A stretch of 32,000 nt of DNA from Fimbriiglobus ruber (GTDB taxonomy: Bacteria; Planctomycetota; Planctomycetia; Gemmatales; Gemmataceae), in NCBI RefSeq assembly GCF_002197845.1, contig NZ_NIDE01000020.1, positions 139,460 through 171,459 on the forward strand, read 5' to 3'. Position numbers and translations under genes: made by a program. The first letter of the stretch is position 1, and each line of letters begins with the position of its first letter. The notes beneath the pieces are model-generated. The model searched no databases. It saw nothing but the letters and a program-made list of their open reading frames with translations, and was not told the origin of the DNA. This document shows, in pieces, positions 5,443-29,617 of the stretch.

Positions 5443-6591
5443 TCATTTGCTCGGATCCTCACTTGTTACTGTTTCGAACGTATGGCAAACCCGTGGCAAA
5501 CCGGAACTAATTGGCTCCACTGGGGCATTGTACATCCCCAGGAAGGCGTCGGTGAGACGGATCTGATCGTTTTGCAGGGCGTGACCGTAGACCCGCAGGA
5601 CCATCGACGGGTCGGAGTGCCCGAGGCGGCGGGCCACGCTCAGAACGTTGGCGCCGCTCGACATAAGGAGGGTGGCTCCTGTGTGGCGCAGTTCGCCCGG
5701 CACCCATCCCTTCAGGCCGGCGGCTGCGGCCAGCACCTTCCACTGCGAAACGAGTCCGTAGTAGGAGATGTGGCCGCGAGACGTACCGGGGAAGATCCAA
5801 TCGGTCGACTTGCAGACCTTGCGGTAGGTGTCCAAAGCCGTAATCGTCGGCATAGTCAGCGGGACGGTACGCCGGCTGAATTCGTTTTTCAGCCCCTTCA
5901 CCTCTCCAGTCTCGGGGCAGATGGCTCTCACGATTTTGATTTGCCGGCCGTCGTAGTCTTCCCAGCGGAGGGCGATCAGTTCTCGGGGTCGCGTACAGCA
6001 CTCCACCCCGAGCCGGACGATGATTCCGAAGTGCGGCCGTTTGGCGAAATCGTCGGCGACTTTCACGAGGCCGACGAACTGCTCCAATGTGAGCGATCGC
6101 CGTTTCGCCCGAACCACCTTCGGGGGCGTGATTTTATCGAGCGTCGAATTCGGTAACGTGGGATGGGAGCGGAGTATCTTCGAGAGCGTGGAGAACGCGC
6201 GGTGCCGCTGGTCGGCGGACTTGCCGGCCTTCATCATGCTCGTCAGCCACTTGCGTACCTTCGCGGCCAGCTCGACATGATCAGCGACGAGACACTTCGC
6301 CAGGTCGGGACGTATCAGCGACTCAATCACTTCCTTGTCTCGGCCGACCGTCTTGGCCTCTACCTGCGTCTCTTGAATCGCAATCCATTCGTCCAGCCAT
6401 TCCCCGAGCGTACCCGAATCCTTTGGCCGGTCGACGTGCTCGCGGATCCACGCCAGGGCATCCGTCTTCCGGTCGAATACCTTGGATCGGCCTGGACCGT
6501 TCGGCCCCGGGAGTTTCGCGCGGAACTGGCCGTCGCCATGCGGTAGGGCAGACCCTTCACCTTGCCCGCGGGAGCCTTTTTTTTTGGCCAC
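5443..6591 (-). CDS. int: Phage-type tyrosine integrase (382 aa)
   Basis: GTG at 6591 with AAGGAG 7 nt upstream. Motifs TRPRELIALRW (Arg), LRHTGATLL (H-x-x-R) and LGHSDPSMVLRVYGH (His..Tyr). Codons 3-5 form an A9 run. Confidence 0.9.
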   Translation of the reverse strand: MAKKKGSRGQGEGSALPHGDGQFRAKLPGPNGPGRSKVFDRKTDALAWIREHVDRPKDSGTLGEWLDEWIAIQETQVEAKTVGRDKEVIESLIRPDLAKCLVADHVELAAKVRKWLTSMMKAGKSADQRHRAFSTLSKILRSHPTLPNSTLDKITPPKVVRAKRRSLTLEQFVGLVKVADDFAKRPHFGIIVRLGVECCTRPRELIALRWEDYDGRQIKIVRAICPETGEVKGLKNEFSRRTVPLTMPTITALDTYRKVCKSTDWIFPGTSRGHISYYGLVSQWKVLAAAAGLKGWVPGELRHTGATLLMSSGANVLSVARRLGHSDPSMVLRVYGHALQNDQIRLTDAFLGMYNAPVEPISSGLPRVCHTFETVTSEDPSK

Positions 6592-13664: not shown

Positions 13665-13668
13665 CGCG

Positions 13669-14013: not shown

Positions 14014-14019
14014 CCGACG

Positions 14020-14268: not shown

Positions 14269-14273
14269 CCGAC

Positions 14274-15138: not shown

Positions 15139-15209
15139 ACCGAAAATGTCGGGGCGGCTTCGCAGCGTGCGTGGCCGCAGTTACAGGGTGATAGCGAGGG
15201 GATCTGACG

Positions 15210-15653: not shown

Positions 15654-15656
15654 GGA

Positions 15657-15944: not shown

Positions 15945-16186
15945 CAATCCTTTACCCCTTACCTTATCGCCCGACCCGCGCCCACGCCCCGGGCCTAACC
16001 CTCAGACGGCTTGTGTCATGAAGACGACTTTGGCTTCGACTGCGGTAGTATCCATACTCGGGGCCAGCTCCGAGTTGGCCAAGATGCTGAACGAGCCATC
16101 GGGGCATGGAAGGCCGCGATGGTAGGGGTGTTCCTGATCGTGTGCGTGATGTGCGAGAGACGGGCGGGGAAAGGGACAGTGCCATC

Positions 16187-16639: not shown

Positions 16640-17357
16640 CCACCTGCTGGACCAGCGGGCTCCGCACGATGTCCGCCGGTCCCAACCGCACGTGACCCAT
16701 GAGGCCGCCCCGCAGACGCTCCACGGCCCGCGGGAGGCCCGGCAACAACCTCGCGGGCAAGTCGGTTTGTTCCAGATCCCCGGTAACAATAACCCGCGTG
16801 CCGTCGCCGGGTCGCGTGAGCAGCATGAACATCTGCTGCTCCGTCGCGTTCTGCCCCTCGTCCAGAATCACGCACGCACCTCGCAGCGTCGACCCCCGCA
16901 GGTATTGGAGCGGGGAGATTATCACCTGCCGCGACTCAATCAGCCGGTCCATTGCCGCCCCCGTCTCATCTCCCAGATACTCGCAGAGGGCGTCGAGGAG
17001 CGGGGCGAAGTACGGGCCGACCTTCTCGCCGAGATCCCCCTTGTGGTAGCCCAATTCGCCGCCACACGTCACAGTTGGGCGGACGAGTACGATGCGGCGA
17101 ATCTCGCCCCGTTGGAGTTGCTGGAGGGCGTGCGATGCCGCAAGGAACGTCTTGCCCGTGCCGGCCGGTCCGGTGACGAATAGGAGTTGATAATCGGGGT
17201 TGCGGAGGGCGGCTAAATAGGGCCGTTGGCCGGGGGTTCGGGCCGTCAATTGCGGAAGTGGCTTTGGCTGAGCTGCGGGGGCGATTTTAGGGGCTTTTGA
17301 CTTCCGCGGTGGGCGGGGCATGGGTGGTCGCCGTGGGGTGGGCGGGACTCTCGACAC
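16626..17357 (-). CDS. phoH: PhoH-like ATPase (243 aa)
   Basis: Walker A FVTGPAGTGKT. RIVLVRPTVTCGGELGYHKGDLGEKVGPY. Walker B CVILDEGQN. Also VIVTGDLEQTDLP. Alternative start ATG at 17321. Confidence 0.9.
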   Translation of the reverse strand: MSRVPPTPRRPPMPRPPRKSKAPKIAPAAQPKPLPQLTARTPGQRPYLAALRNPDYQLLFVTGPAGTGKTFLAASHALQQLQRGEIRRIVLVRPTVTCGGELGYHKGDLGEKVGPYFAPLLDALCEYLGDETGAAMDRLIESRQVIISPLQYLRGSTLRGACVILDEGQNATEQQMFMLLTRPGDGTRVIVTGDLEQTDLPARLLPGLPRAVERLRGGLMGHVRLGPADIVRSPLVQQVVSQW

Positions 17358-17373
17358 GTCCGGCGGAGCGACG

Positions 17374-17592
17374 TCACTCTCTCCGATAAGCTGCTGCCGG
17401 CCCGCTCCACACCTCGCGGTACACCTTGACGCTCCCGCCCCGCCCGTTAACCCGCGAAGCCACGTATTCGGCCTGAGCCTTCGTGGGGCTCAGGCTCTCG
17501 GGGAAGCGGTCGTCTGGGCCGGGGCAGGTGAACGGCTCGCCGTGCTTGTCGGTGCCTTCGACGACCCACCGTTCGGCCGATTTCGGTCTCAT
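17374..17592 (-). CDS. Hypothetical protein (72 aa)
   Basis: The ATG at 17592 forms an ATGA overlap with the upstream gene. Sequence begins MRPKSAERWVVEGTDKHGEPFTCPGPDD... The longer ORF-track version (to 17784) is R/G-rich and overlaps. Confidence 0.65.
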   Translation of the reverse strand: MRPKSAERWVVEGTDKHGEPFTCPGPDDRFPESLSPTKAQAEYVASRVNGRGGSVKVYREVWSGPAAAYRRE

Positions 17593-17897
17593 GACTGTGA
17601 CCCCTCCCCACTCGTATCCTTTGCTGGCCCCGGCACCTCCGGCGGTCCGTCCATCCCGCTGATCCCGCCGCCCTGGACGAGCGTGCCGTCGTTGAAGTCC
17701 GCACTGGCGTTGCTGACGACGGGGAACGGTCCGTCGCCCGGCTGCTGAATGTCCGTGCCGATGCCGCCGATGGGAGGTGCCCAACCCCTCATGTCGAGCA
17801 TCTTCACGCCGGGCAGCAGCTTGTCGTCGTCAGCCGTGGCGACTGGCGTCAGGGTGATGACGGCGTGGCAGTGGGGGCAGCGGATGGAGTTGGGCAT
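17589..17897 (-). CDS. Hypothetical protein with an N-terminal CxxC (102 aa)
   Basis: ATG at 17897 preceded by GAGGTG. Sequence begins MPNSIRCPHCHAVITL... Confidence 0.65.
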   Translation of the reverse strand: MPNSIRCPHCHAVITLTPVATADDDKLLPGVKMLDMRGWAPPIGGIGTDIQQPGDGPFPVVSNASADFNDGTLVQGGGISGMDGPPEVPGPAKDTSGEGSQS

Positions 17898-17907
17898 GGC
17901 GGGCACC

Positions 17908-18069
17908 TCACTTGACCCCAAGAATAGACGTCACGCCCCGAACTAAGATCCAACACGTACCAATGAAAGTGCCGATCACCAACGCCGTCAGGGTCAACGA
18001 ACCCAGCAAGGCCACTAAGCACCCATGCGTACCATTGTGCTCGTAGATCTCGGCTGGCGTCTGGTCCAT
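17908..18069 (-). CDS. Small single-pass membrane protein (53 aa), below the ORF-track length cut-off
   Basis: My own translation is MDQTPAEIYEHNGTHGCLVALLGSLTLTALVIGTFIGTCWILVRGVTSILGVK. It contains one long hydrophobic helix and fills the gap between neighbouring genes. Confidence 0.5.
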   Translation of the reverse strand: MDQTPAEIYEHNGTHGCLVALLGSLTLTALVIGTFIGTCWILVRGVTSILGVK

Positions 18070-18079
18070 CCGCACCGGT

Positions 18080-18307
18080 CTACCCTCGCGCCAAGAACCC
18101 CTTCACCGCGACATTGATCGGCATCACTATCCCGTTTAATCGGCACGGCTCGTTGCCATCTCGCTGGCCGCCGAACTCCAGGGTCTTCACCGTGGCGCCG
18201 TCGATCCCGGGGCGGTGCGTGATCGTGAACGAGTCCTCGCCGTAGTAGCCGAGGTCGTTGGCCGCGGTGACGAAGGCGGTCAGCGGGACGATGAGGCGGT
18301 CTTCCAT
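18080..18307 (-). CDS. Hypothetical protein (75 aa)
   Basis: Very strong GC3 bias. No SD or motif recognised. Confidence 0.65.
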   Translation of the reverse strand: MEDRLIVPLTAFVTAANDLGYYGEDSFTITHRPGIDGATVKTLEFGGQRDGNEPCRLNGIVMPINVAVKGFLARG

Positions 18308-18325
18308 CGGAGGAGTCCTGTGGGG

Positions 18326-18988
18326 TTACGCGGCGGAGGTATCCATCGCGTTGACAATGGTCATCCCGTCCGGCCGAATCCGGATCACTTGGCCACGGAT
18401 CATGGTTCCGGATTCTCTGAACCCGTCGGCACGACTGTAAGTGATGCTCAGTACGTCGTCTTGCGCCTTGCCGAGCATTCCCATGATTTGGCCGTAATCC
18501 AGGAACAGGCTGTTCCATTTCACAAGGCGGCCGTTGAGCCGGATTTCATATTCTTGGGGCTTCGGAACGGCGGCCTGCATCACGGCACCCGGCATGGCGA
18601 CGCCTTCCAGTTTCGCGCTCAGCGACTGTCCGATGTCTGACCAGTCCACATATGGTCGCTTCCCGACAGCGTGAACTAGTGGGCACCCGTAAGCCGCATC
18701 GTCGATGTAAACTTGTGCGTACGCCTTCGGTGAGTCGGTCCAGGACTTTTGCAGCGGATTCACGTTGACCGCCCAGAACTCCAGGCCTTGTGACCGACAG
18801 TATTCGACTGCATCGCTAAGCGGGTTCGTACCGTCATCGCGACCGTCGCTCCGCATCGTCCACAAGATCAACGTGGCGCCCAGACTCTGGAGATGTAGGA
18901 GTGTTTCGATCGCCTTGGGAACGGGAGCCCCGACTCTTGGGAATTCGTGTTCCACGATTGTGCCGTCGAAATCAACGCAAATGATCAC
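18326..18988 (-). CDS. HAD-superfamily phosphatase domain fused to a C-terminal multiubiquitin-like beta-grasp domain
   Basis: IICVDFDGTIV carries the DxDxT nucleophile motif, followed by LILWTMRS and YIDDAA. The C-terminal EYEIRLNGRLVKWNSLFLDYGQIMGMLGKAQDDVLSITYSRADGFRESGTMIRGQVIRIRPDGMTIVNAMDTSAA fits the Multi_ubiq pattern (I.vNGr..w....isy.qi..la....y.vtY.r.....G.l..G..v.i.dGM.f.v..T..S). I prefer the GTG at 18988, because the ORF-track start at 19063 is a TTG inside a hairpin loop. Confidence 0.7.
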   Translation of the reverse strand: MIICVDFDGTIVEHEFPRVGAPVPKAIETLLHLQSLGATLILWTMRSDGRDDGTNPLSDAVEYCRSQGLEFWAVNVNPLQKSWTDSPKAYAQVYIDDAAYGCPLVHAVGKRPYVDWSDIGQSLSAKLEGVAMPGAVMQAAVPKPQEYEIRLNGRLVKWNSLFLDYGQIMGMLGKAQDDVLSITYSRADGFRESGTMIRGQVIRIRPDGMTIVNAMDTSAA

Positions 18989-19021
18989 GGGGTATTCCGG
19001 TAAGAGGTAAGGGGCAAGTTT

Positions 19022-19072
19022 GGGGAGCCTCCGTGCTCCCCGGGTCCGCGCCCCGGGCGACAAAGGGCGCGG
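19022..19072 (-). terminator. Two tandem GC-rich hairpins downstream of gene 19080-19391
   Basis: CCGCGCCC (19046-19053) pairs with GGGCGCGG (19065-19072). GGGGAGC (19022-19028) pairs with GCTCCCC (19035-19041). No U-tract follows. Confidence 0.35.
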
Positions 19073-19079
19073 GAGCGAA

Positions 19080-19391
19080 TCAGCTGCCTTCGAGTGCTTG
19101 GAAGTCGGCCAGCACCTTTGCGGCGTTGGCCCCTTCGGTGCCGATCGTTGCGAGGATCTGGGCCACGTTTTGCGACGTGATCGCCCCGTACACGGCTATC
19201 CCACCACCGATCAGTGCGGACACGTCGGCGGGAAGCGGGCTATCGCCGAGTTTCGTCAGGTCTGCCACGATCAGAGCGAACAGGCCGGCCGGGTCCGAAG
19301 CGTACTGACTGATGAGGGCCAGGACCGCCGACCAATTGAAGGTCGGGATGGTAAAGACGGTCAGGCTCGCGGGTAAAGCGGTCAGAGTCAC
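19080..19391 (-). CDS. Hydrophobic/membrane-associated protein (103 aa)
   Basis: GTG start. Hydrophobic segments LTVFTIPTFNWSAVLALI, AGLFALIVADL and ALIGGGIAVYGAI. Confidence 0.6.
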   Translation of the reverse strand: MTLTALPASLTVFTIPTFNWSAVLALISQYASDPAGLFALIVADLTKLGDSPLPADVSALIGGGIAVYGAITSQNVAQILATIGTEGANAAKVLADFQALEGS

Positions 19392-19434
19392 AGGTCAAGT
19401 CTCCGTTGAGTGAGTCGGGGTCAGGGGAGGAGGT

Positions 19435-19453
19435 GGCCCCCACGCAGGGGGCC
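19435..19453 (-). terminator. Perfect 7-bp hairpin immediately after the protease stop codon
   Basis: GGCCCCC (19435-19441) and GGGGGCC (19447-19453) with a 5-nt loop. No U-tract. Confidence 0.35.
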
Positions 19454-19460
19454 GGGGATG

Positions 19461-20651
19461 CTACGGCTTCAGGACCGGGGTGTACCCGCCCGGGACGGTC
19501 ACGGTTTTCTTGTCGAGGTCGATGGTGATGGACCCGGCGGCCGGGGTCGGCGGATTGGGAGCCGGGGGCACGGGTGGAACCGGCGGGGTAGGGCCGGGCG
19601 GCACAGGAGCCGTCCCGTTAATCTTCGCCCACGCCGCCGCGTAACCGATCTGGGCCGAGTTGCGGGCGATCCGCATGCAACCCTTCTCGCCCCAGGACTC
19701 GTTCCAATGGTTTTGCATGATCCAGCACGGAGGGGAAGTCGTATCGTCCCATCCGAGCAGGTTGACGGCGTGGTCCACGTCGCCAGCGGTCAGCGGCGGG
19801 CCGGTGAAAATCCCACTGGAGTAGGCCATGAAATTATCGTCTGCCGCCACGCAGACCGAGATTTGCCCATAGGCCAGAATCGCATCCTTGACGCTCTGCT
19901 CATCCGGAATCGTGGAATCGCTGCCGACGTACCCATGCGCATCGATCTTGTGGGTTCCTGCCGCCCCGCTGCACTGGCCGACCGCGCCGTTGTAGGGCGA
20001 CTGGGTCGCGTCGTTGTCGGTGTTCCCGAGCAACCATTCCATTACGTCGGACGGGAACCCACCGTCGCAACCGCCCGTGTTCGAACACGCCAGCGTGTGG
20101 GCGTAGGACCATGTCACCGTGTTCTTGACTCCGGCCTTCTTCTCAGCCGACATACAGGCCTTGTCTGCCGAGAAGTTGTAGCAGTCGCCGCACTGCATCT
20201 GATCATCAACATCTGTCGCAAAGCCGAGCGGCCGAATGTCGTATTGGGCTTGCGTGGCTCGCGGCAGGACGGGCCGGTAAGGGGCTTTCGCCTTGATCCG
20301 CTCGTGCAAGTTCGCGGGCAGTTTCAAGCCCTTGACGGACCTGGAAGCGGCCTTGAACGACTCCTTGCCGATCTGGTGGTTTGTGAACCCGGCCTTCAGG
20401 TGAATCTCGTGGCTCAGGGCTTCGAGCTGGGCCACCTTGTCGAACACGGGCGACCGCTTCGTCTTGAATTTGTGGCCGTTGGACTTCAGGTGGGCGTCGA
20501 TCGCCGCGAGGCGGGCATCGGCCGGATGAGTCTTCGCAGCGGCGGCCACGGCCGGAGGAGTCACCAGGTTGCTCACAGTCGCTGCGGACACCGCCGCAAT
20601 GACGACCGCGATCGCGCTGATGCCGATCAATAGGTAGGAAACTTTTCGCAA
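19461..20651 (-). CDS. Papain-family (peptidase C1) cysteine protease with an N-terminal signal anchor and a Pro-rich C-terminal linker
   Basis: DQMQCGDCYNFSA (Gln oxyanion residue plus catalytic Cys). GGCDGGF. DHAVNLLGWDD (catalytic His). WIMQNHWNESWGEKGCMRI (Asn/Trp). The N-terminus MRKVSYLLIGISAIAVVIAAVSAATVS is an Ala/Ser/Gly-rich helix. The tail contains PVPPGPTPPVPPVPPAPNPPTP. I chose the TTG at 20651 (GGAG 6 nt upstream, no overlap). The ORF-track start at 20762 overlaps the upstream gene by 82 nt. Confidence 0.85.
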   Translation of the reverse strand: MRKVSYLLIGISAIAVVIAAVSAATVSNLVTPPAVAAAAKTHPADARLAAIDAHLKSNGHKFKTKRSPVFDKVAQLEALSHEIHLKAGFTNHQIGKESFKAASRSVKGLKLPANLHERIKAKAPYRPVLPRATQAQYDIRPLGFATDVDDQMQCGDCYNFSADKACMSAEKKAGVKNTVTWSYAHTLACSNTGGCDGGFPSDVMEWLLGNTDNDATQSPYNGAVGQCSGAAGTHKIDAHGYVGSDSTIPDEQSVKDAILAYGQISVCVAADDNFMAYSSGIFTGPPLTAGDVDHAVNLLGWDDTTSPPCWIMQNHWNESWGEKGCMRIARNSAQIGYAAAWAKINGTAPVPPGPTPPVPPVPPAPNPPTPAAGSITIDLDKKTVTVPGGYTPVLKP

Positions 20652-20680
20652 AGTCGCACTCCGAACAGGTAAAGGGTCTC

Positions 20681-21127
20681 TCACTTTTTCGCCACCAACC
20701 GCGGCTTCCGCCGCTCCAACTCGTTCGGCACGTCGCTCGCGTATAGCGGCATGATCTGCCACAGTGGGATCTCGTCGGGGGTCAGCATCCCCGCCGCCCG
20801 CAACTCATCCTCAAGAACCCGCCGCCGGTCGCACGCATCCCAGAACCGCGTCGCATGTTCCGGGAGCCGTTCCCGCCCGCACATCGCCATCCATGCCGAC
20901 AACCGCACCCCGCCGTCTACGAGCCACGGGCACCGACCTGCCGCGATCCGCCCCGCCCGGTAGGCCCGCTCCGGGTCGTCGCTCACGTCCAACGCCGCGG
21001 CCAGGGTGCCCAGCGGGGAGGAGCGGAGGCGGGCGTCGGCCCGGTCCCTGACGGTCCAGTTGGGGGACGCGAGGGCGGAGAGGCTGGGGCCGTAGAGGAT
21101 GGCGAGGAGGAGGCGGGCGAGGATCAC
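20681..21127 (-). CDS. Secreted hypothetical protein (148 aa)
   Basis: The GTG at 21127 forms a GTGA overlap with the upstream stop. Signal-peptide-like MILARLLLAILYGPSLSALASP. Confidence 0.65.
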   Translation of the reverse strand: MILARLLLAILYGPSLSALASPNWTVRDRADARLRSSPLGTLAAALDVSDDPERAYRAGRIAAGRCPWLVDGGVRLSAWMAMCGRERLPEHATRFWDACDRRRVLEDELRAAGMLTPDEIPLWQIMPLYASDVPNELERRKPRLVAKK

Positions 21128-21519
21128 GCAACATCCCCCATGGCGTGAGACGGCCGGGTGGTTGCCCCGTACGCCGACGGTTGCCCCTCGCTCTTAACTT
21201 CGTAAAAGGCGAACGGCAGCCTGCCGGTGTGCTTAACGCTCTTGTCGGCGGTGCCCAGAATTATGGCCGAGCAGTCCCAAAAAGTCGGCCCGTGGTGCGG
21301 ACTCGTTGGGTCGTCATGGGCTGGGTCGTAGGCCAATCCCGCACCGCACGAGCAACGGCTGTGCGCCGCGTAGACGAGGCGATCCGCGAGGGGCTTCGCC
21401 TTCGTCTCGGCTTCCCGAATCGCAGTCGCCTTCTTCCGCAGTTCGGCAGCCTCAGCTTCCAACCCCTCGGCTGAAGCGATAAGAAATTCGTACCCTTGTT
21501 GCGGGCCAAGTTTTCCCAT
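21124..21519 (-). CDS. Hypothetical protein (131 aa)
   Basis: ATG at 21519 with AGGAG upstream. N-terminal coiled-coil-like segment, then HSRCSCG...FWDC. Confidence 0.65.
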   Translation of the reverse strand: MGKLGPQQGYEFLIASAEGLEAEAAELRKKATAIREAETKAKPLADRLVYAAHSRCSCGAGLAYDPAHDDPTSPHHGPTFWDCSAIILGTADKSVKHTGRLPFAFYEVKSEGQPSAYGATTRPSHAMGDVA

Positions 21520-21521
21520 GT

Positions 21522-21722
21522 CTATCGCTCCTGTTGGACGGCCCTGTAGAGGTTCGGCAGAGCCCTCCGGTAACCGACACACTCGTCGCAGTCTCTCGTA
21601 AACGTGTCGGCGTCGAAAGTTCCCGGCTCACCGCAAGACGGGCAGATGTCGTCACGGCCCGATTTGGACACCCAAATCCTGTTGCCGAAACAGTCGTCGA
21701 TTTGCTCGATGTCGCTGCTCAT
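21522..21722 (-). CDS. Small zinc-ribbon protein (66 aa)
   Basis: Contains CPSCG ... CDEC. ATGA-coupled start at 21719-21722. Confidence 0.65.
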   Translation of the reverse strand: MSSDIEQIDDCFGNRIWVSKSGRDDICPSCGEPGTFDADTFTRDCDECVGYRRALPNLYRAVQQER

Positions 21723-21976
21723 TTGTACCCCTTCGCCTTACGCCGTTTGGCCACCCGCTTCTCGAACGCCCGGCGATCCGACGCGTTGTGCGGCCGTCGC
21801 CTCAGTTCGAGCCGATCCCGAGCGTCCTGTTCGGCTTGCGTCTTGAGCGTCTGAAACTCCTCGAACCACCGCGGCCGGCAAACGAGATGCAGCGAACGTA
21901 TCCCGGCCTCGCTGTGAGGTGGGACACAGTCGGCACGGCCGCACAACGGGCAATACGTGACGGTCGTGCCTACCAT
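21719..21976 (-). CDS. Small Cys-containing basic protein (85 aa)
   Basis: ATG at 21976 with GGAGGTG upstream. MVGTTVTYCPLCGRADC..., then a lysine/arginine-rich C-terminus. Confidence 0.6.
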   Translation of the reverse strand: MVGTTVTYCPLCGRADCVPPHSEAGIRSLHLVCRPRWFEEFQTLKTQAEQDARDRLELRRRPHNASDRRAFEKRVAKRRKAKGYK

Positions 21977-22065
21977 CGTCGCCACCTCCGCCAGACCCAC
22001 CGCGCCCCGCACATCGCGAGGACGGTCAGAGCCCACACCGACGTCAGGGTGAGGAACAGGGTCAC
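21970..22065 (-). CDS. Possible 31-aa membrane peptide
   Basis: The GTG forms a GTGA overlap with the upstream stop. MTLFLTLTSVWALTVLAMCGARWVWRRWRRW is one TM helix followed by an Arg/Trp tail. It overlaps the next start by 7 nt. It is too short to be sure. Confidence 0.3.
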   Translation of the reverse strand: MTLFLTLTSVWALTVLAMCGARWVWRRWRRW

Positions 22066-22331
22066 CCGAAGCACACCGCGAGGTACGCGAGACAGCCGAG
22101 TACGATCGCCCAGACAAATGCCGGCCAGAAGTCTCGCCAAGGGAACGGCTCGGGGGCCGTGTCTCGCTGCGATTGCCGGGCCGATATCGCCATGAACCAG
22201 GCATCTAGCCTCTGCTGGCAGGCGGCGCACGTTCTGTCGAAATGGATGCCGCTAGCGTGGTGATCCCGGTGGCAACCACAGGGGTAATCCTCCGAGCGAA
22301 CGACCGCCCCCGGTGAAATTAGGACTGCCAT
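22062..22331 (-). CDS. Tail-anchored membrane protein with a Cys/His-rich N-terminus (89 aa)
   Basis: ATG at 22331 with GGAGGGA upstream. YPCGCHRDHH...CAAC, then a C-terminal TM helix FWPAFVWAIVLGCLAYLAVCF. Confidence 0.6.
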   Translation of the reverse strand: MAVLISPGAVVRSEDYPCGCHRDHHASGIHFDRTCAACQQRLDAWFMAISARQSQRDTAPEPFPWRDFWPAFVWAIVLGCLAYLAVCFG

Positions 22332-22399
22332 CACTTCCCTCCGAGTCGTGCCCGCAACTCCGCGATTTGCTCGCCCTGCGAGACCGTGGCCGCCGTTTC

Positions 22400-22846
22400 T
22401 TAGGGTCGCGGAATCATCACAGACCCCGCCCGCAACTCGCGGACGAGCGAGTCGATCGCGGCCCGCGTGTTGCCCATCTCGTGGACGATCTGGTCGTCCT
22501 TCACCTGGAGTGCCCGGGTGGCATCTGTCAGGGCTCGAATCTCCTCGCGGATGAGTTGCCGGTCCTCACGCGCGGCCGTCGACGCATCCCGCTGGTTCAT
22601 GAAGAACAAGCCGATGATCACCATCATCGCCGTGGCGTTCCCGATGGTCGCCATGAGTCCCTTCATGCCCATCCCGCCGAGTTCGCCGGCTACGCTTTTG
22701 GCCACGGCAACGCCCGTAGCGGTCCCCGTGGCAATCGCGGCCGTCATCGCGGTCCCCGGCTTAACTTGGTCGAGGGGTGGCCCGGTACGCCGGTCGGGGC
22801 CGCTGTACGGCTCGTGGGCGGCGGCGGTATCTGTGGCGGCACTCAT
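22400..22846 (-). CDS. Membrane protein with a C-terminal coiled coil (148 aa)
   Basis: ATG at 22846 with GGAG 8 nt upstream. Gly/Ala-rich hydrophobic segments (GLMATIGNATAMMVIIGLFFM) are followed by REDRQLIREEIRALTDATRALQVKDDQIV. Confidence 0.65.
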   Translation of the reverse strand: MSAATDTAAAHEPYSGPDRRTGPPLDQVKPGTAMTAAIATGTATGVAVAKSVAGELGGMGMKGLMATIGNATAMMVIIGLFFMNQRDASTAAREDRQLIREEIRALTDATRALQVKDDQIVHEMGNTRAAIDSLVRELRAGSVMIPRP

Positions 22847-22886
22847 TGGTGGGGCTCCGTCGTGTCGGGGCGAACTGGGCGGGTGC

Positions 22887-23435
22887 TTACTCCGAAACGA
22901 AGTCGGCTTTGACCGCCGCCCCGTCCTTGTCGGCCCGCGGGTACAGCGTGACTTCCAGAGACCGGACCGCTTGTGCCCCGGCAACTTCCGCCCGGGTGGC
23001 GGGCTTGCCGTTGAGCGTGATCTTCGACTCCGGATCTTTGAAAACGACGGGGAACGTCACCCCCTGATCCTGGTAGCTGAGGGTGAGCAGCAGGGTCGAT
23101 TGAAATGCGAAGTCGTTGACCACGACCATGCTAACAACCGTACCGTGCTCCTTGGGGCGAGGCATGGCCTTCGGGGCCGGCGAGGGCTGCACTGCATCGT
23201 GGATGAACTCCCACCGCCGCAATTCCTGGTGGAATCGGTAATGGCCCGTCACGCCCTTCGGGGGCACCGGCAGGGTCGACACGGCGGGGGCGGCCGGGTA
23301 CGCGACCTGATGGAAGGCCGGGGCGGCTGAGGGTGCGAATTGCGGGGCCGGACACCCGAGCGGGCCACATTGGGCCGAGGCGAGTCCGGCCGACGTCAGG
23401 GCGAGAATCGACGTGAGTAAAAGCTTCTTCCGCAT
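22887..23435 (-). CDS. Secreted protein (182 aa)
   Basis: GGGAGG upstream of the ATG. Signal peptide MRKKLLLTSILALTSAGLASA-QC. A Pro/Ala-rich linker is followed by a beta-rich domain. Confidence 0.75.
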   Translation of the reverse strand: MRKKLLLTSILALTSAGLASAQCGPLGCPAPQFAPSAAPAFHQVAYPAAPAVSTLPVPPKGVTGHYRFHQELRRWEFIHDAVQPSPAPKAMPRPKEHGTVVSMVVVNDFAFQSTLLLTLSYQDQGVTFPVVFKDPESKITLNGKPATRAEVAGAQAVRSLEVTLYPRADKDGAAVKADFVSE

Positions 23436-23479
23436 CTCTGCCTCCCGTTAGGGTGTCTCATCGTGGGCGACACCACCGC

Positions 23480-23506
23480 ACTCTACCGCGGCCCGTTGCC
23501 TGAGTG
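23480..23506 (-). promoter_or_regulatory. Candidate promoter CACTCAGGCAACG-N8-TAGAGT (read on the minus strand), 44 nt upstream of the ATG at 23435
   Basis: The motif lies at 23494-23506 and the hexamer at 23480-23485. The architecture and the spacing to the start codon match the site upstream of the sigma-factor gene. Confidence 0.5.
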
Positions 23507-23571
23507 AGTGCTTCTCCCCCGGCAGATCGCACCGGAAGGGGCTAACGGAGAAGGTGCGATGCGGCGGGGAA

Positions 23572-23790
23572 CTAGCCTTCGAGATTCGCTTGCACGAAGC
23601 ACGGGGCACAGATCGGCCGACCGTGGGTAAACGTCCACAGGAGTCCCACGACATCCTCACAGCCATGAAGCCGCCGTTCGGAGTCGCGTGAGACGAGATC
23701 GCCGCAGACGTGACAATTGCAGACGAGCAGGGCATCGGGGAGGAGGTCGAGCATGTCACCGTCGGTCAGGTCGGGCGGGTCGGAAGTCAT
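23572..23790 (-). CDS. Small Cys-rich protein (72 aa)
   Basis: Contains CNCHVCG ... C ... CAPC. ATGA-coupled start at 23787-23790. Confidence 0.6.
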   Translation of the reverse strand: MTSDPPDLTDGDMLDLLPDALLVCNCHVCGDLVSRDSERRLHGCEDVVGLLWTFTHGRPICAPCFVQANLEG

Positions 23791-24032
23791 TGCTGCCCCA
23801 GCGGGAAGGGTTCGGTGCCGTCGTCCACAGGCGCGTCAGTCCGGAGCGTCTTGTAGATCCATCCATACCCGTTGAGATGTTCGAGGCTGAAATCCGAGAG
23901 AAGTGGGTCGTCAGTCTCGCCCTGGATCGCGATCGCCATCACCGCCGGGTCGCCACGCCACGCTTCCCAGAACCTGACGTACCGCCAGGACGCAATGCTC
24001 AGAACCATGCGGTGGAACGCGGCGAGAGTCAC
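23787..24032 (-). CDS. Hypothetical protein (81 aa)
   Basis: The GTG at 24032 forms a GTGA overlap with the upstream stop. Confidence 0.55.
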   Translation of the reverse strand: MTLAAFHRMVLSIASWRYVRFWEAWRGDPAVMAIAIQGETDDPLLSDFSLEHLNGYGWIYKTLRTDAPVDDGTEPFPLGQQ

Positions 24033-24145
24033 GGGTGGGCACCCCGGAGGAGGAACAGGACGTACAGACTGAGGCCCATGATGGCGGCCAGAGCGCCGCC
24101 GGAAGCGACGACACCAAGCCAGAAGGCGAAGCGGGCACCGGCCAT
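24029..24145 (-). CDS. 38-aa hydrophobic peptide
   Basis: The ATG at 24145 overlaps the upstream stop (TGATG). Sequence MAGARFAFWLGVVASGGALAAIMGLSLYVLFLLRGAHP. Confidence 0.45.
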   Translation of the reverse strand: MAGARFAFWLGVVASGGALAAIMGLSLYVLFLLRGAHP

Positions 24146-24366
24146 CAGGGGCACACGTGTTGAGGAATAAAAAAGTGCCCCGCCAAAGCGCCCATCGCGA
24201 ACACGAACGTAATGAGCAGCCACAGTTTGCGACTACTCCAAGCCATGATCTGGTAGGAAATCGTTGCGTTGTTCCCCCAGATCCGGTACGCGAGGTAGTC
24301 GTACAGGAGGATCGCGGGGGCCGCGAGGACGATCAGGATTAGGGTCAGAGTTTCGCCGGTGTTCAT
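24145..24366 (-). CDS. Holin-like protein with two transmembrane helices (73 aa)
   Basis: GAGAGG upstream of the ATG. TM1 is LTLILIVLAAPAILLYDYLAY and TM2 is LWLLITFVFAMGALAGHFF. It lies directly after the tail-fibre genes, the usual holin position. Confidence 0.6.
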   Translation of the reverse strand: MNTGETLTLILIVLAAPAILLYDYLAYRIWGNNATISYQIMAWSSRKLWLLITFVFAMGALAGHFFIPQHVCP

Positions 24367-24376
24367 GTGATACCTC

Positions 24377-24904
24377 TCATGTCGTCAGGGGATCGCCTGC
24401 CCCGGCCGCCAACAGCCCGAGCGTGGTGGTGACGATCGTGGCCTGGTCGAGCCTTGCTCCGCACTGAGCGGCCACGGTCGCGGGGTCGGTCGCACCGGCG
24501 ATGCCGCCCGGTCCGCGGTTCGCTGCAATTTGGGCGGTGATCGCAGCGGCAGTGGGCATGGCCACGTTGGCCGCCGCCGCGATCAATTGGAGGGTCGCCC
24601 AGAGCCCTTCGGCCACGTCGTTCACCCGGTAGTGGAGGGCCGCGTCCCCGGCCCTGGCCCCCGTTGCGGTCGGTGAGACGCCGCCGAGCATGTCCGCCTG
24701 GGCCGACTGCGTTAGCCACGTCGTCGTTGCCGCGGTCAAGTCGCCGACCGTGTCCGGCAGCGGTCCGCCGATCTGGGGCGGCGGCCCCGACCAATAAAAT
24801 ACCTGATACCCGGGGTACAAAGCCGGGTTAACGGTGGTGTCATCGTGAGTCGCAAATATGCTCCCCGTAACGCCGTCCGCGTTGATGGACGCGACAATTT
24901 GCAT
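24377..24904 (-). CDS. Hypothetical protein adjacent to the tail fibres (175 aa)
   Basis: The ATG at 24904 overlaps the upstream stop (TGATG). Ala/Thr/Gly-rich. Its position suggests a fibre accessory or assembly role, but I recognised no motif. Confidence 0.6.
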   Translation of the reverse strand: MQIVASINADGVTGSIFATHDDTTVNPALYPGYQVFYWSGPPPQIGGPLPDTVGDLTAATTTWLTQSAQADMLGGVSPTATGARAGDAALHYRVNDVAEGLWATLQLIAAAANVAMPTAAAITAQIAANRGPGGIAGATDPATVAAQCGARLDQATIVTTTLGLLAAGAGDPLTT

Positions 24905-26604
24905 CACAGTGCCCGGAAGTTCGTGAGTTTCGGGTAAGCCGTGTACGACCCGCTGCCGAGGTAGTACCACCCGCACCCGGCCGACAGCAGCGTGTTCGCG
25001 TAGGTCGAGTCAGTGGCTGTTATGATCGTGGTCCCGTCGAGCTGGACCGTGATAGATGAACCCAACATGATCACGGTCAGAGTGTGTGTGGCGCTCGCGG
25101 CCCACGAGAAGGTGTAGGCGGTCCCGAGTACCGTCGCCGCGTTGGACACGAACTTTTGTAGGGTGACTTTCCCCGTGTTCGTGTCATAGGCCACCTGATA
25201 CCCGTTCTGGTTGATCGTGCCGGTCCCGAGGCGAGTCCAGATCTCGCCGGCCCAACTGCCCGACGCCGGGGCCGTAAAGTCGCATGAAATCGTGTAATCG
25301 CCCTTCCCCAGGTTCATGTAGCAGATCGTGTTGCCGCTACTCGCCCCGGCTTGAATCAGAGCGTTACCACTAATCTGTCCAGTCCCGCCGACGATTGACC
25401 ACGCCGGCCCCCACGTAGGGGTGTGAGCGGTGATATTCGTACTCGTGGTGTCGATAAAAGCGTCATACGCCGTCATCCCGTTGAACCCGGGACCAGACAC
25501 TAAAGCGCCATAGTTACTAACGATACCGAGCGGCGGACTGAACAGTGCCGTGTTGCCGACATTGACGGCGGTCAATGGGTAGGTACACGCTGCTACGGTG
25601 ACTTTGGCTCCCTGTTGCGACAATACGACCTGAGAATTCCCGTAGAACTGGACCGCTTGAAGTAACGCTTCCCCGCCATACGCCGCACTGACCGCGGCCG
25701 AGGTGCAGTAGGTAATGAGGCCGCCGAAAAGCTGGACGTGGCCCATGCCGGCCGTCAGGTCGATTCCAGCCCCGCAGGCGCTGATACTGAGTCCGGTATT
25801 TGATGAAAAAAAGAATCCGGGTCCATACGTCCGGACTCCGATCGTACACCCGGTGATAGAAATGGTCCCGGAGGTGTTGAGTTCGCCGTCCCCGATTTGG
25901 GCGCCGGTCGTGAGGTTTTCAATCGTGCATGCCGTTATTGTCGTTCGGGACCGTCCCGTCTGGTTGATGCCGGTCTGACCATTGATCGTCGTGCCGTTAA
26001 TTGTGAGATTGGAAACCGTCAATCTCACGTTGTCGGCCGCCACGGTGATGCAAGTGGCCGACGCCGCAACAGTCAATATTGTACTGCTGCCATTAATAAT
26101 CAGACTGCCGCTTTGCGGTCCATTGATCGTGACCGCCGTGTTGGCGAAAGTCTGACTCGCCAGAGCCAGCGTCACGCTATTCGTCGGCGCGACTTCGCAA
26201 TCTCGACAGAATAGTAACGCGTTGGCGATCGTCGTGAACCGGGACGACGTGCCGACCGCCAGGGATACGTTGGCCGCGACGAACCACAGTTTCCAGTACG
26301 TGTAGGCGTCGGTCGTCGGGTCGTTACCCGTGGTCGAGGCGATGCACTGGTAGTAGTTCCCGTCACTCCCGATGACGACGGCTCCGGCCCCGTAGGTCGT
26401 CGTTGACAAGTAAGTTGCTAGACCGTCTTGCAACAGTGCGAACGTCCCGGCCTTGTCCGGGAGCGTAAATGTGCGAGCAGCCGTCAACCCTGTGGGGTCC
26501 ACCACAGCGAGCCCGAGTTCCAAAGCATCGGTGCCCGACTGGAACTCGTCCGACGCGAGAGTCGACGAGTCTCGGTAGAGCGGGCTGCGAGGGGTGCCGG
26601 CCAC
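24904..26604 (-). CDS. Tail fibre/tailspike with a parallel beta-helix middle part and a lectin-like C-terminal domain (566 aa)
   Basis: GTG at 26604. Repetitive T/S/G/N-rich rungs (LTVSNLTINGTTINGQTGINQTG..ITACTIENLTTGAQIG..ISITGCTIG...) are typical of pectate-lyase-like beta-helices. YYQCIASTTGNDPTTDAYTYWKLW is a fibre-type motif. The C-terminal ~180 aa is a beta-sandwich-like sequence. Confidence 0.8.
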   Translation of the reverse strand: MAGTPRSPLYRDSSTLASDEFQSGTDALELGLAVVDPTGLTAARTFTLPDKAGTFALLQDGLATYLSTTTYGAGAVVIGSDGNYYQCIASTTGNDPTTDAYTYWKLWFVAANVSLAVGTSSRFTTIANALLFCRDCEVAPTNSVTLALASQTFANTAVTINGPQSGSLIINGSSTILTVAASATCITVAADNVRLTVSNLTINGTTINGQTGINQTGRSRTTITACTIENLTTGAQIGDGELNTSGTISITGCTIGVRTYGPGFFFSSNTGLSISACGAGIDLTAGMGHVQLFGGLITYCTSAAVSAAYGGEALLQAVQFYGNSQVVLSQQGAKVTVAACTYPLTAVNVGNTALFSPPLGIVSNYGALVSGPGFNGMTAYDAFIDTTSTNITAHTPTWGPAWSIVGGTGQISGNALIQAGASSGNTICYMNLGKGDYTISCDFTAPASGSWAGEIWTRLGTGTINQNGYQVAYDTNTGKVTLQKFVSNAATVLGTAYTFSWAASATHTLTVIMLGSSITVQLDGTTIITATDSTYANTLLSAGCGWYYLGSGSYTAYPKLTNFRAL

Positions 26605-26608
26605 TTAA

Positions 26609-27235
26609 TCACCCCGCCGTCTTGATCGGCGTTTGTGGCTGGAACTGGACCTGCGTTGCAGAGAGGGCCACGCCCAACACCTGGGCCGTCTGCCCCGCGG
26701 TGTACGTCGGGATCGTGGTGGTCCCCACCCCAGCCGTGGCATTCGAGAGGACAACCGTGCTCCCGGGCGTCATCCCGGACACGTTCGAGTTGATCCCGCT
26801 CATGTAGATCGTGTTGGCGGCCGGCGACGTCGACGCTGTAGTAACGTAGCCGTGTGCCCATTTCCCGTTCGTCGTCCCGTCCGCTTTCTGGATTGTCGCG
26901 ACCCCGGAATTGCTCCAGACATGAACCCACGCCCCGGCCGCCAGAGTGTCCGACGTGGGCAACGAAATCGTGTCCGGTCCGACGCCAGTCGGGAGGACGG
27001 TAACGTCGAGTTGGCCCCCGGAATTCAGTAACGGGATCTTTCCCGAACTCCCCGCGCCGGCACTGACAATCGTCGTGTTGAGCAGCGACGTGTCGACCTG
27101 GGCCGACGAATTTAGGGCGACGGGATTGCCAGCTACGGCCTGGGTGTCTGTCGACAATTGGGCCGGGCGAATGTCGTCCAAAATCCCGGTCGTCGGGTCT
27201 CGCCCGGCGAGCATGGTTGCCGTGGAGCTTGACAT
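26609..27235 (-). CDS. Tail-fibre protein (208 aa)
   Basis: GSSGKIPLLNSGGQLDVTVLP is the common fibre N-terminal motif (G.ip.Ln..G.ld...lP). The rest is T/S/A/G-rich. Confidence 0.75.
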   Translation of the reverse strand: MSSSTATMLAGRDPTTGILDDIRPAQLSTDTQAVAGNPVALNSSAQVDTSLLNTTIVSAGAGSSGKIPLLNSGGQLDVTVLPTGVGPDTISLPTSDTLAAGAWVHVWSNSGVATIQKADGTTNGKWAHGYVTTASTSPAANTIYMSGINSNVSGMTPGSTVVLSNATAGVGTTTIPTYTAGQTAQVLGVALSATQVQFQPQTPIKTAG

Positions 27236-27238
27236 TAT

Positions 27239-27799
27239 TTACACCGCGAGGGTTATTGGGGGTTGTGGGTCTATGAACACCGTCTGGGCACCGATTGCGT
27301 ATCCAACAACGAGCGAAAACACGGATGACGGAGCAGTCGGCGGGCTCTGGGTCAACGCCCCTGCCACACCCAGAAAGACTGGACCTAGAGACCAATTCCA
27401 ACTCGGCTCCGTGACAGGTCCGTAAGCCGTCACGTTCACGGTTTCTCCCATGGCCGCCGCACTCGCCGATAACCCGTATGCTTGCGAAAGACTCCCGGTC
27501 TGAGTCGCGTCGGCGTAGACCAAGCCGGTGGCAGTAAGCCGAACAACTCGTTGCCCCCCGATATCGACGGCCGCAATCGCGGTGTACCCGTTCGATCCAC
27601 CTTGCGGGCCGACGGGTCCCTGCTTCCCCTGCGGCCCCTGTCTCCCCGGAGCCAATACATACCTCGGGTCGCTGCGCACCACGACCGCCGGCCCGGCCAC
27701 AACAATCGCATTCTGCGGGGCAGCCGACTCGATCGACTCTTGCGCCACGCCCGCGATCACTTGCGGCTGCTCCTCCGCAATCAGTTCGGGGCCGCTCAT
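27239..27799 (-). CDS. Collagen-like-repeat tail-fibre protein (186 aa)
   Basis: A G-x-y run, GRQGPQGKQGPVGPQGG, is followed by a fibre-like C-terminal domain. ATGA-coupled start at 27796-27799. Confidence 0.75.
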   Translation of the reverse strand: MSGPELIAEEQPQVIAGVAQESIESAAPQNAIVVAGPAVVVRSDPRYVLAPGRQGPQGKQGPVGPQGGSNGYTAIAAVDIGGQRVVRLTATGLVYADATQTGSLSQAYGLSASAAAMGETVNVTAYGPVTEPSWNWSLGPVFLGVAGALTQSPPTAPSSVFSLVVGYAIGAQTVFIDPQPPITLAV

Positions 27800-29008: not shown

Positions 29009-29617
29009 CTACCGCTCCCCGTCGTCCGTCATGTGCTCCCTGAGCATCCCCACCGCCTCGCCCATCAACTGATCCACTCGCCCCTGCGTCAGTCCCATGA
29101 TCGTCGCCGTCGTCTTCTTGCTGGCCGGGTCGCCACCGATGCCGGCCCGCAGTTTCACGACCGTTCGATGCGGCTCCGGGAGATATCGAACTGCCTCGCG
29201 CAACTGAACCATCTCCCCCGCCGCGTCCAGCTCCGCTTCGCCGCTCGCCCGCTGGTCGGCTAGCCCTTCCCACCCGTCGTCGTCGTCCTTCGTCTCGACA
29301 AACTGTTTGCCTGTTCGATCGTAGAACCTGACCAGTTCGACGATGGCCCCGCGGATAAACTTTGCCGCGTAGGTGTCGACCGTCTCGCCCCACCCCGGCT
29401 GCCAAGTCGCCGCCGCCTCGCACACCGCCTGAAGCACCGCCGCATTGACTTCGTCCCGCCGAAAGTGCCAGTGCGGGGCGTAGACCATTGCCGCGACCTT
29501 GGGTGCCAGCATCTTCAGAATGGCCAGCGGCTCGGGATAGCGGCGGTAGAAGTCCAAGACGAGCTGTTGCTGGTGCTCGCTGAGGGTCGGCGTGGGGCGT
29601 GGCGGGGGCGTGTCCAC
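29009..29617 (-). CDS. Sigma-70-family (ECF-like, regions 2 and 4) RNA polymerase sigma factor (202 aa)
   Basis: Region-2-like VNAAVLQAVCEAAATW...TYAAKFIRGAIVELVRF. Region-4 LPEPHRTVVKLRAGIGG...TTATIMGLTQGRVDQLMGEAVGMLREHM (HTH). GTG start at 29617. Confidence 0.8.
   Translation of the reverse strand: MDTPPPRPTPTLSEHQQQLVLDFYRRYPEPLAILKMLAPKVAAMVYAPHWHFRRDEVNAAVLQAVCEAAATWQPGWGETVDTYAAKFIRGAIVELVRFYDRTGKQFVETKDDDDGWEGLADQRASGEAELDAAGEMVQLREAVRYLPEPHRTVVKLRAGIGGDPASKKTTATIMGLTQGRVDQLMGEAVGMLREHMTDDGER

Follow-up and report, generated by a model that had tools for sequence, protein, structure and literature searches.

A 32,000-nucleotide stretch of DNA from Fimbriiglobus ruber (Gemmataceae), referred to here as the window, carries part of an integrated phage-derived element that encodes an exported papain-family (C1A) protease of phage lineage, plausibly linked to host lysis. 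The protease gene lies in a run of 13 minus-strand genes at positions 19080-24366, within a longer stretch of minus-strand genes that reads from about 32000 down to 16600. The element is temperate, as indicated by the tyrosine integrase at its left edge, 34 nt from a tRNA-Ser gene; the part analysed here covers 5.4-32 kb, and the element extends past window position 32000. An earlier note on this DNA had read the run as a candidate lysis or envelope module built around the protease and lacking any recognisable muralytic enzyme.

The protease matches the Pfam family PF00112 (Peptidase_C1) with an E-value of 1.1e-37 and a score of 130.7 bits against a cut-off of 20.7, covering positions 4-211 of the 220 in the profile. 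Its best match among solved structures is actinidin (E 8.6e-29), and 146 PDB sequences give E-values below 1e-10. Gln162, Cys168, His305, Asn325 and Trp327 are invariant in an eight-sequence alignment (A1), and their codons were verified in the DNA. The family profile and this full Gln-Cys-His-Asn-Trp set place the protein in C1A, and the enzyme is apparently catalytically competent. The papain-like enzyme described in the earlier note is therefore real, with an intact catalytic set and an N-terminal signal anchor that predicts export. The protein is 100% identical to an NCBI Fimbriiglobus ruber entry annotated as 'FB22 precursor'.

Structurally, the protease consists of a signal anchor (residues 16-38), a pro-region (about 39-140), a catalytic domain (about 146-356), a Pro-rich linker (357-382, PVPPGPTPPVPPVPPAPNPP) and a tail of 25 amino acids (aa). 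Translation most likely begins at the GTG at 20684, which overlaps the stop codon of the preceding gene, g148b, as GTGA; the gene caller took the TTG at 20651. Such GTGA and ATGA overlaps tie the protease to its two upstream genes through translational coupling, and its GC content and GC content at third codon positions (GC3) match those of its neighbours. From these overlaps and the composition, the gene is not a recent insertion. The pro-region covers about 100 residues ahead of the 'LP..(F/Y)D.R' motif at which the mature enzyme begins, and procathepsins K and L align with part of it in phmmer, to query residues 73-94. The I29 propeptide profile (PF08246) finds no match in the protease at E-values up to 0.1. 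In an AlphaFold2 model built from eight sequences, with a mean predicted local distance difference test (pLDDT) score of 59, the pro-region is helical with pLDDT below 50, too low for an I29 fold to be assigned. A zymogen is plausible from these features.

Hydropathy places a transmembrane (TM) segment at residues 19-37, and the signal anchor is predicted to hold the enzyme on the periplasmic side. Ten of the 19 residues in this segment (53%) are Gly, Ala, Ser or Thr, and its mean Kyte-Doolittle (KD) value of 2.46 is the highest among the TM segments of the run. The earlier note had compared this N-terminus to the signal-anchor-release (SAR) domains of some endolysins. The Gly/Ala/Ser/Thr-rich composition agrees with that comparison, but a conserved SAR mechanism is unlikely, given the high hydropathy and the different N-termini of relatives. 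An N-terminal signal peptide, TM segment or lipobox is present in each of the eight aligned proteins and in nearly every phage homologue inspected. Since the relatives include proteins with cleavable signal peptides or lipoboxes, the conserved feature is export rather than SAR-type release. Like the SAR endolysins P1 Lyz and phage 21 R, the window protease has an Ala/Ser/Gly-containing N-terminal TM segment that tethers an exported enzyme. Unlike them, its catalytic domain is a Peptidase_C1 rather than a muralytic one, its TM segment reaches a KD value of 2.46, and release upon depolarisation is not conserved among its relatives.

Comparative searches connect this protease to phages. In a collection of 5.8 billion proteins, its five nearest relatives (29-37% identity) all lie on phage-like contigs, which carry genes for a terminase, HNH endonuclease, DNA methylase, helicase or Gp49. 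IMG/VR contains at least 480 C1 relatives, many of them from giant viruses and several dozen on phage-sized contigs, while GTDB genomes contribute hundreds more at similar identity, with cellular homologues at 33-38%. When 73 catalytic domains were compared in a neighbour-joining tree, the window protein fell in a clade of seven, drawn from phage or viral contigs only, together with the proteases of loci L004, L005, L006, L002, L003 and L086. Reciprocal BLAST agrees, separating a high-GC 'clade A', which includes the window, from a low-GC 'clade B'. The protease thus has a phage association, its nearest relatives being on phage-like contigs and in a phage-only clade rather than among ordinary host secreted proteases. 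A structure search against viral models returned cathepsins of giant viruses, baculoviruses and ascoviruses, along with several C1 proteins of uncultured phages. One of these phage proteins is annotated 'Peptidoglycan binding-like', and mycobacteriophage Lysin A appears as a weak match.

Across 50,697 deposited phage records, homologues of the window protease, of the clade B proteases or of the protease of a further locus, L033, are absent from isolated phages; a few unannotated faecal-metagenome fragments are the only matches. When all window proteins were compared by tblastn and phmmer with about 235 loci, the only matches were to the protease, a HAD-like domain, PhoH and an 82-aa zinc (Zn)-ribbon protein in L087, besides a few scattered others. 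Beyond the protease, the window shares no further gene with its phage kin except this Zn-ribbon, which lies at 14020-14268 in the window and at 12731-12970 in L087 and is 44% identical. As the sole non-protease gene common to both, it hints that L087 is a distant relative.

The 13 genes of the run were defined by agreement among the open reading frame (ORF) listing, a GC3 frame analysis and independent gene calling on the Logan contig ERR3330974_315, whose sequence is identical to window 5366-24668. In order, they are g73, g38, g81, g72, g182, g148cc, g89, g85, g66, g131, g148b, the protease and g103 (Table 1). The run is coupled as the earlier note described, with overlaps of 1-4 nt at 6 of its 12 junctions, although it holds 13 called genes rather than about 15. 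All topologies in the run come from Kyte-Doolittle hydropathy only. On this basis the two-TM protein of 73 aa and the hydrophobic 38-aa peptide at the start of the run are borne out, as are the tail-anchored Cys/His protein (g89, with six Cys and a C-terminal TM segment at 71-89) and two proteins with signal-peptide-like N-termini. The latter are g182, with predicted cleavage after MRKKLLLTSILALTSAGLASA and before QC, and g148b, with predicted cleavage after MILARLLLAILYGPSLSALA and before SP. At the end of the run, the C1 peptidase is present, but g103, described as another hydrophobic protein, does not reach the TM threshold. A proposed 31-aa peptide with an RW tail does not survive: it overlaps the start of g85, failed the GC3 frame filter and was left uncalled by the gene caller. 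The stated placement downstream of tail-fibre genes holds in that fibre-like genes do lie upstream, g186 (3e-14) among them, although the matches of g566 are weak.

Table 1. Window coordinates of the protease run, its catalytic codons, promoter-like motifs and surrounding features
Feature	Position	Strand	Description
g73	24145..24366	-	73 aa; TM segments 7-25 and 49-67; holin-like by topology only
g38	24029..24145	-	38 aa; one long hydrophobic stretch; its ATG overlaps the g73 stop
g81	23787..24032	-	81 aa; acidic, without TM segment
g72	23572..23790	-	72 aa; 6 Cys, Zn-ribbon-like pattern, without TM segment
g182	22887..23435	-	signal-peptide-like N-terminus, Pro-rich linker, C-terminal region of about 100 aa
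g148cc	22400..22846	-	TM segment at residues 64-82, then charged helical tail
g89	22062..22331	-	Cys/His-rich (6 Cys), tail-anchored; C-terminal TM segment 71-89
g85	21719..21976	-	CxxC...C Zn-ribbon-like N-terminus, very basic tail (20 K+R)
g66	21522..21722	-	acidic, Zn-ribbon-like (CxxC ... CxxC)
g131	21124..21519	-	conserved family; invariant C56, C58, C83, H97
g148b	20681..21127	-	exported ORFan, signal-peptide-like N-terminus; stop overlaps protease GTG (GTGA)
Protease, C1A papain family	19461..20684	-	407 aa from GTG 20684 or 396 aa from TTG 20651
g103	19080..19391	-	103 aa; Ala/Leu-rich; no segment at TM threshold
Gln162 codon	20199-20201	-	protease catalytic set
Cys168 codon	20181-20183	-	protease catalytic set
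His305 codon	19770-19772	-	protease catalytic set
Asn325 codon	19710-19712	-	protease catalytic set
Promoter-like motif CACTCAGGCAACG with TAGAGT 8 nt later	23490..23506	-	in the 136-nt gap upstream of g182
Motif CACTCAGGCAACG with TAGAAT 8 nt later	29672-29688	-	upstream of the sigma-factor gene
Sigma factor, phage-borne	29009..29617	-	Sigma70_r4 3.8e-6; phrog_351 2e-8; just upstream of fibre-like genes
g186, fibre-like	27239-27799	-	C-terminal 110 aa match phage structural/neck-fibre proteins, 3e-14
g208, fibre-like	26609-27235	-	context gene upstream of the run
g566, fibre-like	24904-26604	-	weak tail-fibre and beta-helix matches only
g175	24377-24904	-	just downstream of fibre-like genes
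g220, HAD-like	18326-18988	-	phrog_1238 ('moron/AMG' category); downstream of the run
PhoH	16626-17321	-	Pfam/PHROG; downstream of the run
Tyrosine integrase	5443..6591	-	left edge of the protease-bearing element, 34 nt from tRNA-Ser
tRNA-Ser(tga)	5320-5409	-	between the left-hand and the protease-bearing element
Tyrosine integrase of left-hand element	3862-5217	-	separate element
Large serine recombinase of left-hand element	1937-4459	-	Resolvase and Recombinase domains
HTH_31 regulator of left-hand element	562-864		separate element

A recognisable peptidoglycan-degrading enzyme is missing from this part of the element. Among the called genes at 5.4-32 kb, no Pfam or PHROG match to a lysozyme, transglycosylase, amidase, CHAP, NlpC/P60 or M15/M23 enzyme was found. 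The Pfam and PHROG scans covered every definable gene at 16.6-32 kb, and pre-computed Pfam annotation covered 40-odd genes at 5.4-24.7 kb, with matches only for the integrase, PhoH and Peptidase_C1. Searches with local profiles for Amidase_2 and GH24 gave no match in six-frame ORFs of at least 30 aa across the window. The statement in the earlier note that the window holds no recognisable endolysin is upheld by all of these scans, and the hidden Markov model (HMM) check that it called for revealed no concealed muralytic domain in the called genes; a fold search with g131, alone among the small proteins in having a conserved Cys/His cluster, was negative as well. This absence holds for the window, and the remainder of the element past 32000, together with the mostly ORFan (relative-less) nature of its proteins, limits any wider claim.

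The small membrane proteins of the run resemble lysis proteins in layout. Both g73 and g38 are small proteins with TM segments (two and one, respectively), as holins are. Neither matches a holin family in Pfam or PHROG, and g73 has no tblastn match among the 50,697 phage records. The end of g73 (...FFIPQHVCP) lacks the charged tail of holins, and no endolysin gene adjoins the pair, as the neighbouring g81 and g72 carry no muralytic domain. The protein described in the earlier note as TM-plus-coiled-coil and spanin-like, g148cc, does combine a TM segment with a charged helix, but membership of a spanin family is not borne out. It resembles an i-spanin or a single-TM holin in predicted layout only: its TM segment lies at 64-82 rather than at the N-terminus, it has no PHROG match, and its Pfam Phage_lysis (Rz) score is 13.6 bits against a cut-off of 25.4 (E 0.082). 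No match to g148cc occurs among the deposited phages. Considered as an o-spanin, g182 has Gln at -1 before its Cys (...LASAQ, then C) and so no canonical lipobox, and it lies upstream rather than downstream of g148cc; Pfam, PHROG, PDB-sequence and phage searches with it returned no match. Among 5.8 billion proteins, g148b found only itself, and a full HMMER search against 1.84 billion representatives gave one weak repeat-type match. Against PDB sequences, g148b, g131 and g182 gave either no match or noise. PADLOC models applied to ten window proteins recognised no defence system, with only a weak LeoBC match to the TM/coil part of g148cc (E 0.0019), and an anti-phage defence role was rejected for want of PADLOC support.

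Related proteases in other phages are found beside lysis enzymes in two lineages. In clade B, five loci (L010, L013, L017, L019 and L025) have an Amidase_2 gene immediately upstream of the protease (Pfam E-values 1e-16 to 1e-18), and a sixth, L021, has one four genes upstream. The proteases of the five loci are less than 60% identical to each other, except for L010 and L017 at 66%. Four of them (L010, L013, L017 and L025) also have a conserved secreted protein of 254-273 aa downstream of the protease, and this amidase-protease-secreted-protein synteny is kept where the proteases are only 43-52% identical. In L033, tail-sized genes are followed by the protease, a 79-aa TM protein that is holin-like, and then a GH24 lysozyme (4e-36). 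In a count of neighbours up to three genes away from 24 protease clusters, Amidase_2, with four members, was the commonest Pfam family. Because these four members come from one lineage, endolysin adjacency amounts to two independent lineages once L033 is included.

The whole clade B block, at about 3.5-7.2 kb in L010, comprises a RuvC-like gene, two small genes, Amidase_2, a lipoprotein-type C1 protease and the secreted protein, which has no family. Near this block, no holin or spanin was recognised in the low-GC uncultured phages that carry it.

Within clade A, three neighbourhoods (L004, L088/L089 and L003) resemble the window: large proteins of fibre size or beta-helix type come first, small proteins with one or two TM segments next, and the protease last; a large protein of L003 gives a weak Beta_helix match. 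Small TM proteins adjoin the protease in L003, L004, L086, L087 and L088. The earlier note had asked whether homologous prophages keep the protease next to holin-like genes, and small TM proteins do recur beside it in several related phages.

Some clade A and other loci also show individual features of their own. In L004, the closest relative, the protease combines C1 and PKD domains, and the next gene (11803-13473) encodes a 556-aa protein with FG-GAP repeats and a weak trypsin-like match (E 0.0067), which may be a second exported protease. Directly after the protease of L008/L009, a gene at 10806-11021 in L008 encodes a 71-aa protein with an LSSC lipobox and a Pro-rich mature part, an o-spanin-like layout only.

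Our tentative interpretation, to which we give somewhat less than an even chance, is that the window protease acts as an exported accessory factor, breaking down envelope proteins at phage release alongside a peptidoglycan hydrolase. It is drawn from gene neighbourhoods: among annotated genes, the one that recurs next to phage C1 proteases encodes a lysis enzyme, and the two coexist there. In this scheme, the protease would be produced in the lytic cycle and exported in advance, restrained by membrane tethering, its pro-region or both. At the end of infection, it would cut envelope proteins, either the tethers between outer membrane and wall or the protein-rich wall layer that has long been described for planctomycetes. 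This would complete envelope breakdown and free the virions. The partner peptidoglycan hydrolase would be either unrecognisable among the ORFans or encoded past window position 32000.

Several observations weigh against this interpretation. The two lineages with an adjoining endolysin, clade B and L033, differ from the window's own clade. In L002, L006, L007 and L008/L009, the protease lies near terminase genes, which Pfam confirms in L002 and L008, or near portal-sized genes, and not behind tail genes. None of the small TM proteins of the run falls into a holin or spanin family. Temperate phages also carry secreted cargo genes clustered beside their lysis genes, so adjacency does not discriminate between the two roles. 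Immediately downstream of the run, the HAD-like gene and PhoH are of auxiliary or 'moron' type. Moreover, the 13 genes are not one functional module, and the coherent module of the earlier note gives way to a heterogeneous run. Three of its proteins, g72, g85 and g66, are Cys-rich, Zn-ribbon-like and without a TM segment, and g85, with its basic tail, looks nucleic-acid binding rather than envelope-related. The g131 family is found among DNA-metabolism genes elsewhere: in L235, a 114-kb phage contig, it has two ParB-like genes and an acetyltransferase on one side and an AAA ATPase on the other. A gap with a promoter-like motif upstream of g182 divides the run as well. This motif, CACTCAGGCAACG, is identical over 13 nt and lies about 55 nt upstream of both g182 and the sigma-factor gene, and the two sites may represent a shared promoter. 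Expression of the g182 group may then not be late, as its motif is common to the sigma-factor gene. This arrangement points to a pair of transcription units: the first would run from the fibre genes to the end of g72, the second from g182 to the end of the protease gene, perhaps further. A third copy of CACTCAGGCAACG, at 28851-28867, lies inside the g234 coding sequence without the TAGA element. A general promoter and terminator scan found fewer sites than in shuffled sequence and is hence uninformative.

The g131 family has at least 226 homologues of about 120 aa at 55-70% identity, with a WDCS motif and no Pfam family. Its AlphaFold2 model (pLDDT 88.5) shows a long helix and a small beta domain, finds no PDB fold match with an E-value below 1 and resembles no known muralytic fold. 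Judged from loci L235-L239 and the window, it looks like a family of uncharacterised phage Zn proteins.

The strongest alternative, possible though on the unlikely side, is that the protease is secreted cargo (a moron, lysogenic-conversion or exclusion factor) that benefits the lysogen and plays no part in envelope rupture. It could digest extracellular protein, to the gain of a hydrolytic planctomycete, or it could trim surface proteins and receptors to counter superinfection and the re-adsorption of progeny to debris. Phage exotoxin genes are known to sit beside lysis genes in this way. The staphylococcal exfoliative toxin A gene on the temperate phage phiETA, for example, adjoins the amidase/lysis region and encodes a secreted protease, in this case a serine protease aimed at an animal host. 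The integrase-bearing temperate element, the auxiliary genes directly downstream (phrog_1238 and PhoH), the promoter-like motif common to the sigma gene rather than the fibre genes, and the wide distribution of C1 homologues in cellular genomes at 33-38% identity all fit such cargo. So does the variable position of the gene among phages, near terminase or portal-sized genes in L002 and L008 and among small ORFans in L086 and L087, which is the pattern expected of mobile cargo. On the other hand, unlike the phiETA toxin gene, the window protease is embedded in an operon by translational coupling and belongs to a phage-only clade. Its composition is not set apart from that of its neighbours. The clade B synteny, kept even where the proteases are only 43-52% identical, speaks for a core function over a sporadic one, and the L033 protease lies between tail genes and a holin-like gene, not behind the lysis cassette.

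A periplasmic processing enzyme, which would mature g182, g148b or a surface structure, is an improbable alternative, taken together with the idea that the prophage is defective and the gene decaying, without a current role. In favour of these two ideas, translation of the protease is coupled to that of g148b, an exported ORFan, and g182 probably shares its transcript. In addition, neither attachment (att) sites nor the remainder of the element could be located: the 3' half of the tRNA does not recur in the window, no long direct repeat there is convincing, and terminase, portal and capsid genes are absent from the window, so the prophage may be defective. On the opposing side, the catalytic residues are all intact, GC3 is high, as is typical of genes under selection, and the protease is conserved on many unrelated phage backbones that lack g182 and g148b.

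There is at best a slim chance that the protease is itself the principal lysin, triggered by g73 and g38, either because the wall depends on protein or through stem-peptide cleavage like that of the clan-CA enzymes CHAP, NlpC/P60 and PeiW. No C1A enzyme is known to cut D-amino-acid or isopeptide bonds. PeiW and PeiP belong to a family other than C1A in MEROPS. No C1 ORF examined contains a cell-wall-binding motif, and wherever an endolysin is recognisable beside a phage C1 protease, both are present. Some evidence does point towards a sole lysin. No Pfam or PHROG muralytic domain occurs in 26.6 kb of the element, none (Pfam) within about 10 kb on either side of the protease in L002, L003 and L086-L089, and none among the ORFs scanned in L004, L005, L006 and L022. 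The small TM proteins beside the clade A proteases, the 'Peptidoglycan binding-like' fold match and the weak Lysin A match lean the same way. Nevertheless, these partly covered, ORFan-rich sequences could hide a novel hydrolase. Protein-rich planctomycete walls have been described historically (review PMC12673574), but planctomycetes including Gemmata contain peptidoglycan according to Jeske et al. 2015, as cited in that review. The protease-based lysis without a muralytic enzyme suggested in the earlier note gains a little from the endolysin-free surroundings in clade A, but in other lineages the protease stands beside an endolysin and does not take its place. It is highly doubtful that, in phages of planctomycetes and similar hosts, such a protease is the principal lytic enzyme or one that lysis cannot do without, replacing or equalling a classical endolysin by breaking a protein-dependent wall layer or by cutting stem peptides with a C1 fold. 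An entry role, also raised in the earlier note, is unlikely, since a Sec-exported protein would not enter virions assembled in the cytoplasm.

Several surrounding features complete the picture of the element. Among the fibre-like genes (24904..27799), PHROG matches reach 2.6e-17 and 2.7e-10 for phrog_4368, with a weak phrog_2282 tail-fibre match at 1.6e-4; g566 has no relative in IMG/VR or the deposited phages. Short-read assemblies of the same sequence break repeatedly at 24668-28200, where one Logan contig ends at 24668 and another is only 1890 bp long. These breaks suggest related fibre genes elsewhere in the genome, for example in other prophages. Downstream of the run, four small genes separate g220 from PhoH. 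The N-terminal 127 residues of g220 are frequent in uncultured phages (66 IMG/VR loci, 37-61% identity), whereas for the 90 residues at its C-terminus the only match is a weak one to Multiubiquitin (E 0.021). An apparent glycosyltransferase and methyltransferase architecture common to g596, the last gene of the window, and a 675-aa protein of L004 was dropped, as the two show no sequence similarity.

A second, different mobile element occupies window positions 1-5320 (GC 0.70-0.74), on the canonical 3' side of tRNA-Ser; the protease-bearing element lies on the unusual 5' side. The serine recombinase ORF of this left-hand element overlaps its integrase ORF by about 600 nt. A Logan contig ends at 5366, inside tRNA-Ser, so the 3' half of the tRNA is probably the att repeat of the left-hand element.

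The protease fits within known kinds of phage protein, either accessory lysis factors or phage-borne secreted enzymes. Mycobacteriophage LysB, the spanins (Rz/Rz1) and disruptin (phiKT gp28) are encoded in or beside lysis cassettes and act on a layer outside the peptidoglycan, the role proposed for the window protease (PMC8309991; bioRxiv 10.1101/515445). LysB, too, is an enzyme, one that severs a covalent tether. None of the three is a protease or has sequence or fold kinship to the window enzyme, and the likeness is drawn from the neighbourhoods of other phages alone. The baculovirus protease V-CATH, which acts with a chitinase, belongs to the same family C1A, is a zymogen and breaks down the host late so that progeny escape (PMC3783443); viral cathepsins are also among the fold matches of the window protease. 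However, V-CATH comes from a eukaryotic virus, acts on tissue and has a canonical I29 propeptide, whereas the window protease has no Pfam I29 match and no chitinase partner in the window. PeiW and PeiP, the pseudomurein endoisopeptidases of methanogen viruses, are likewise cysteine peptidases and act as the lytic enzyme on an unusual host wall (PMC4592898, PMC2989375). These two carry wall-binding repeats and cut a defined pseudomurein isopeptide bond, in contrast to the window enzyme, a C1A papain homologue without a wall-binding domain.

Planctomycete phage biology is almost unexplored, and a 2025 review of a century of Planctomycetes research mentions phages once (PMC12673574); the make-up of the planctomycete envelope has itself been disputed for decades. 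If these proteases are release factors, they would join a short list of 'extra-layer' lysis tools, with spanins, LysB and disruptin, and would point to structurally essential envelope proteins in planctomycetes. If they are cargo, phages of environmental bacteria would be seen to carry secreted proteases of a new class. Should the protease prove to be the main or an indispensable lysin, the question of what holds the planctomycete envelope together would be reopened. The role of the protease is directly testable through Cys168, and this catalytic residue would offer a handle in relatives with genetic tools if these enzymes do act in phage release.

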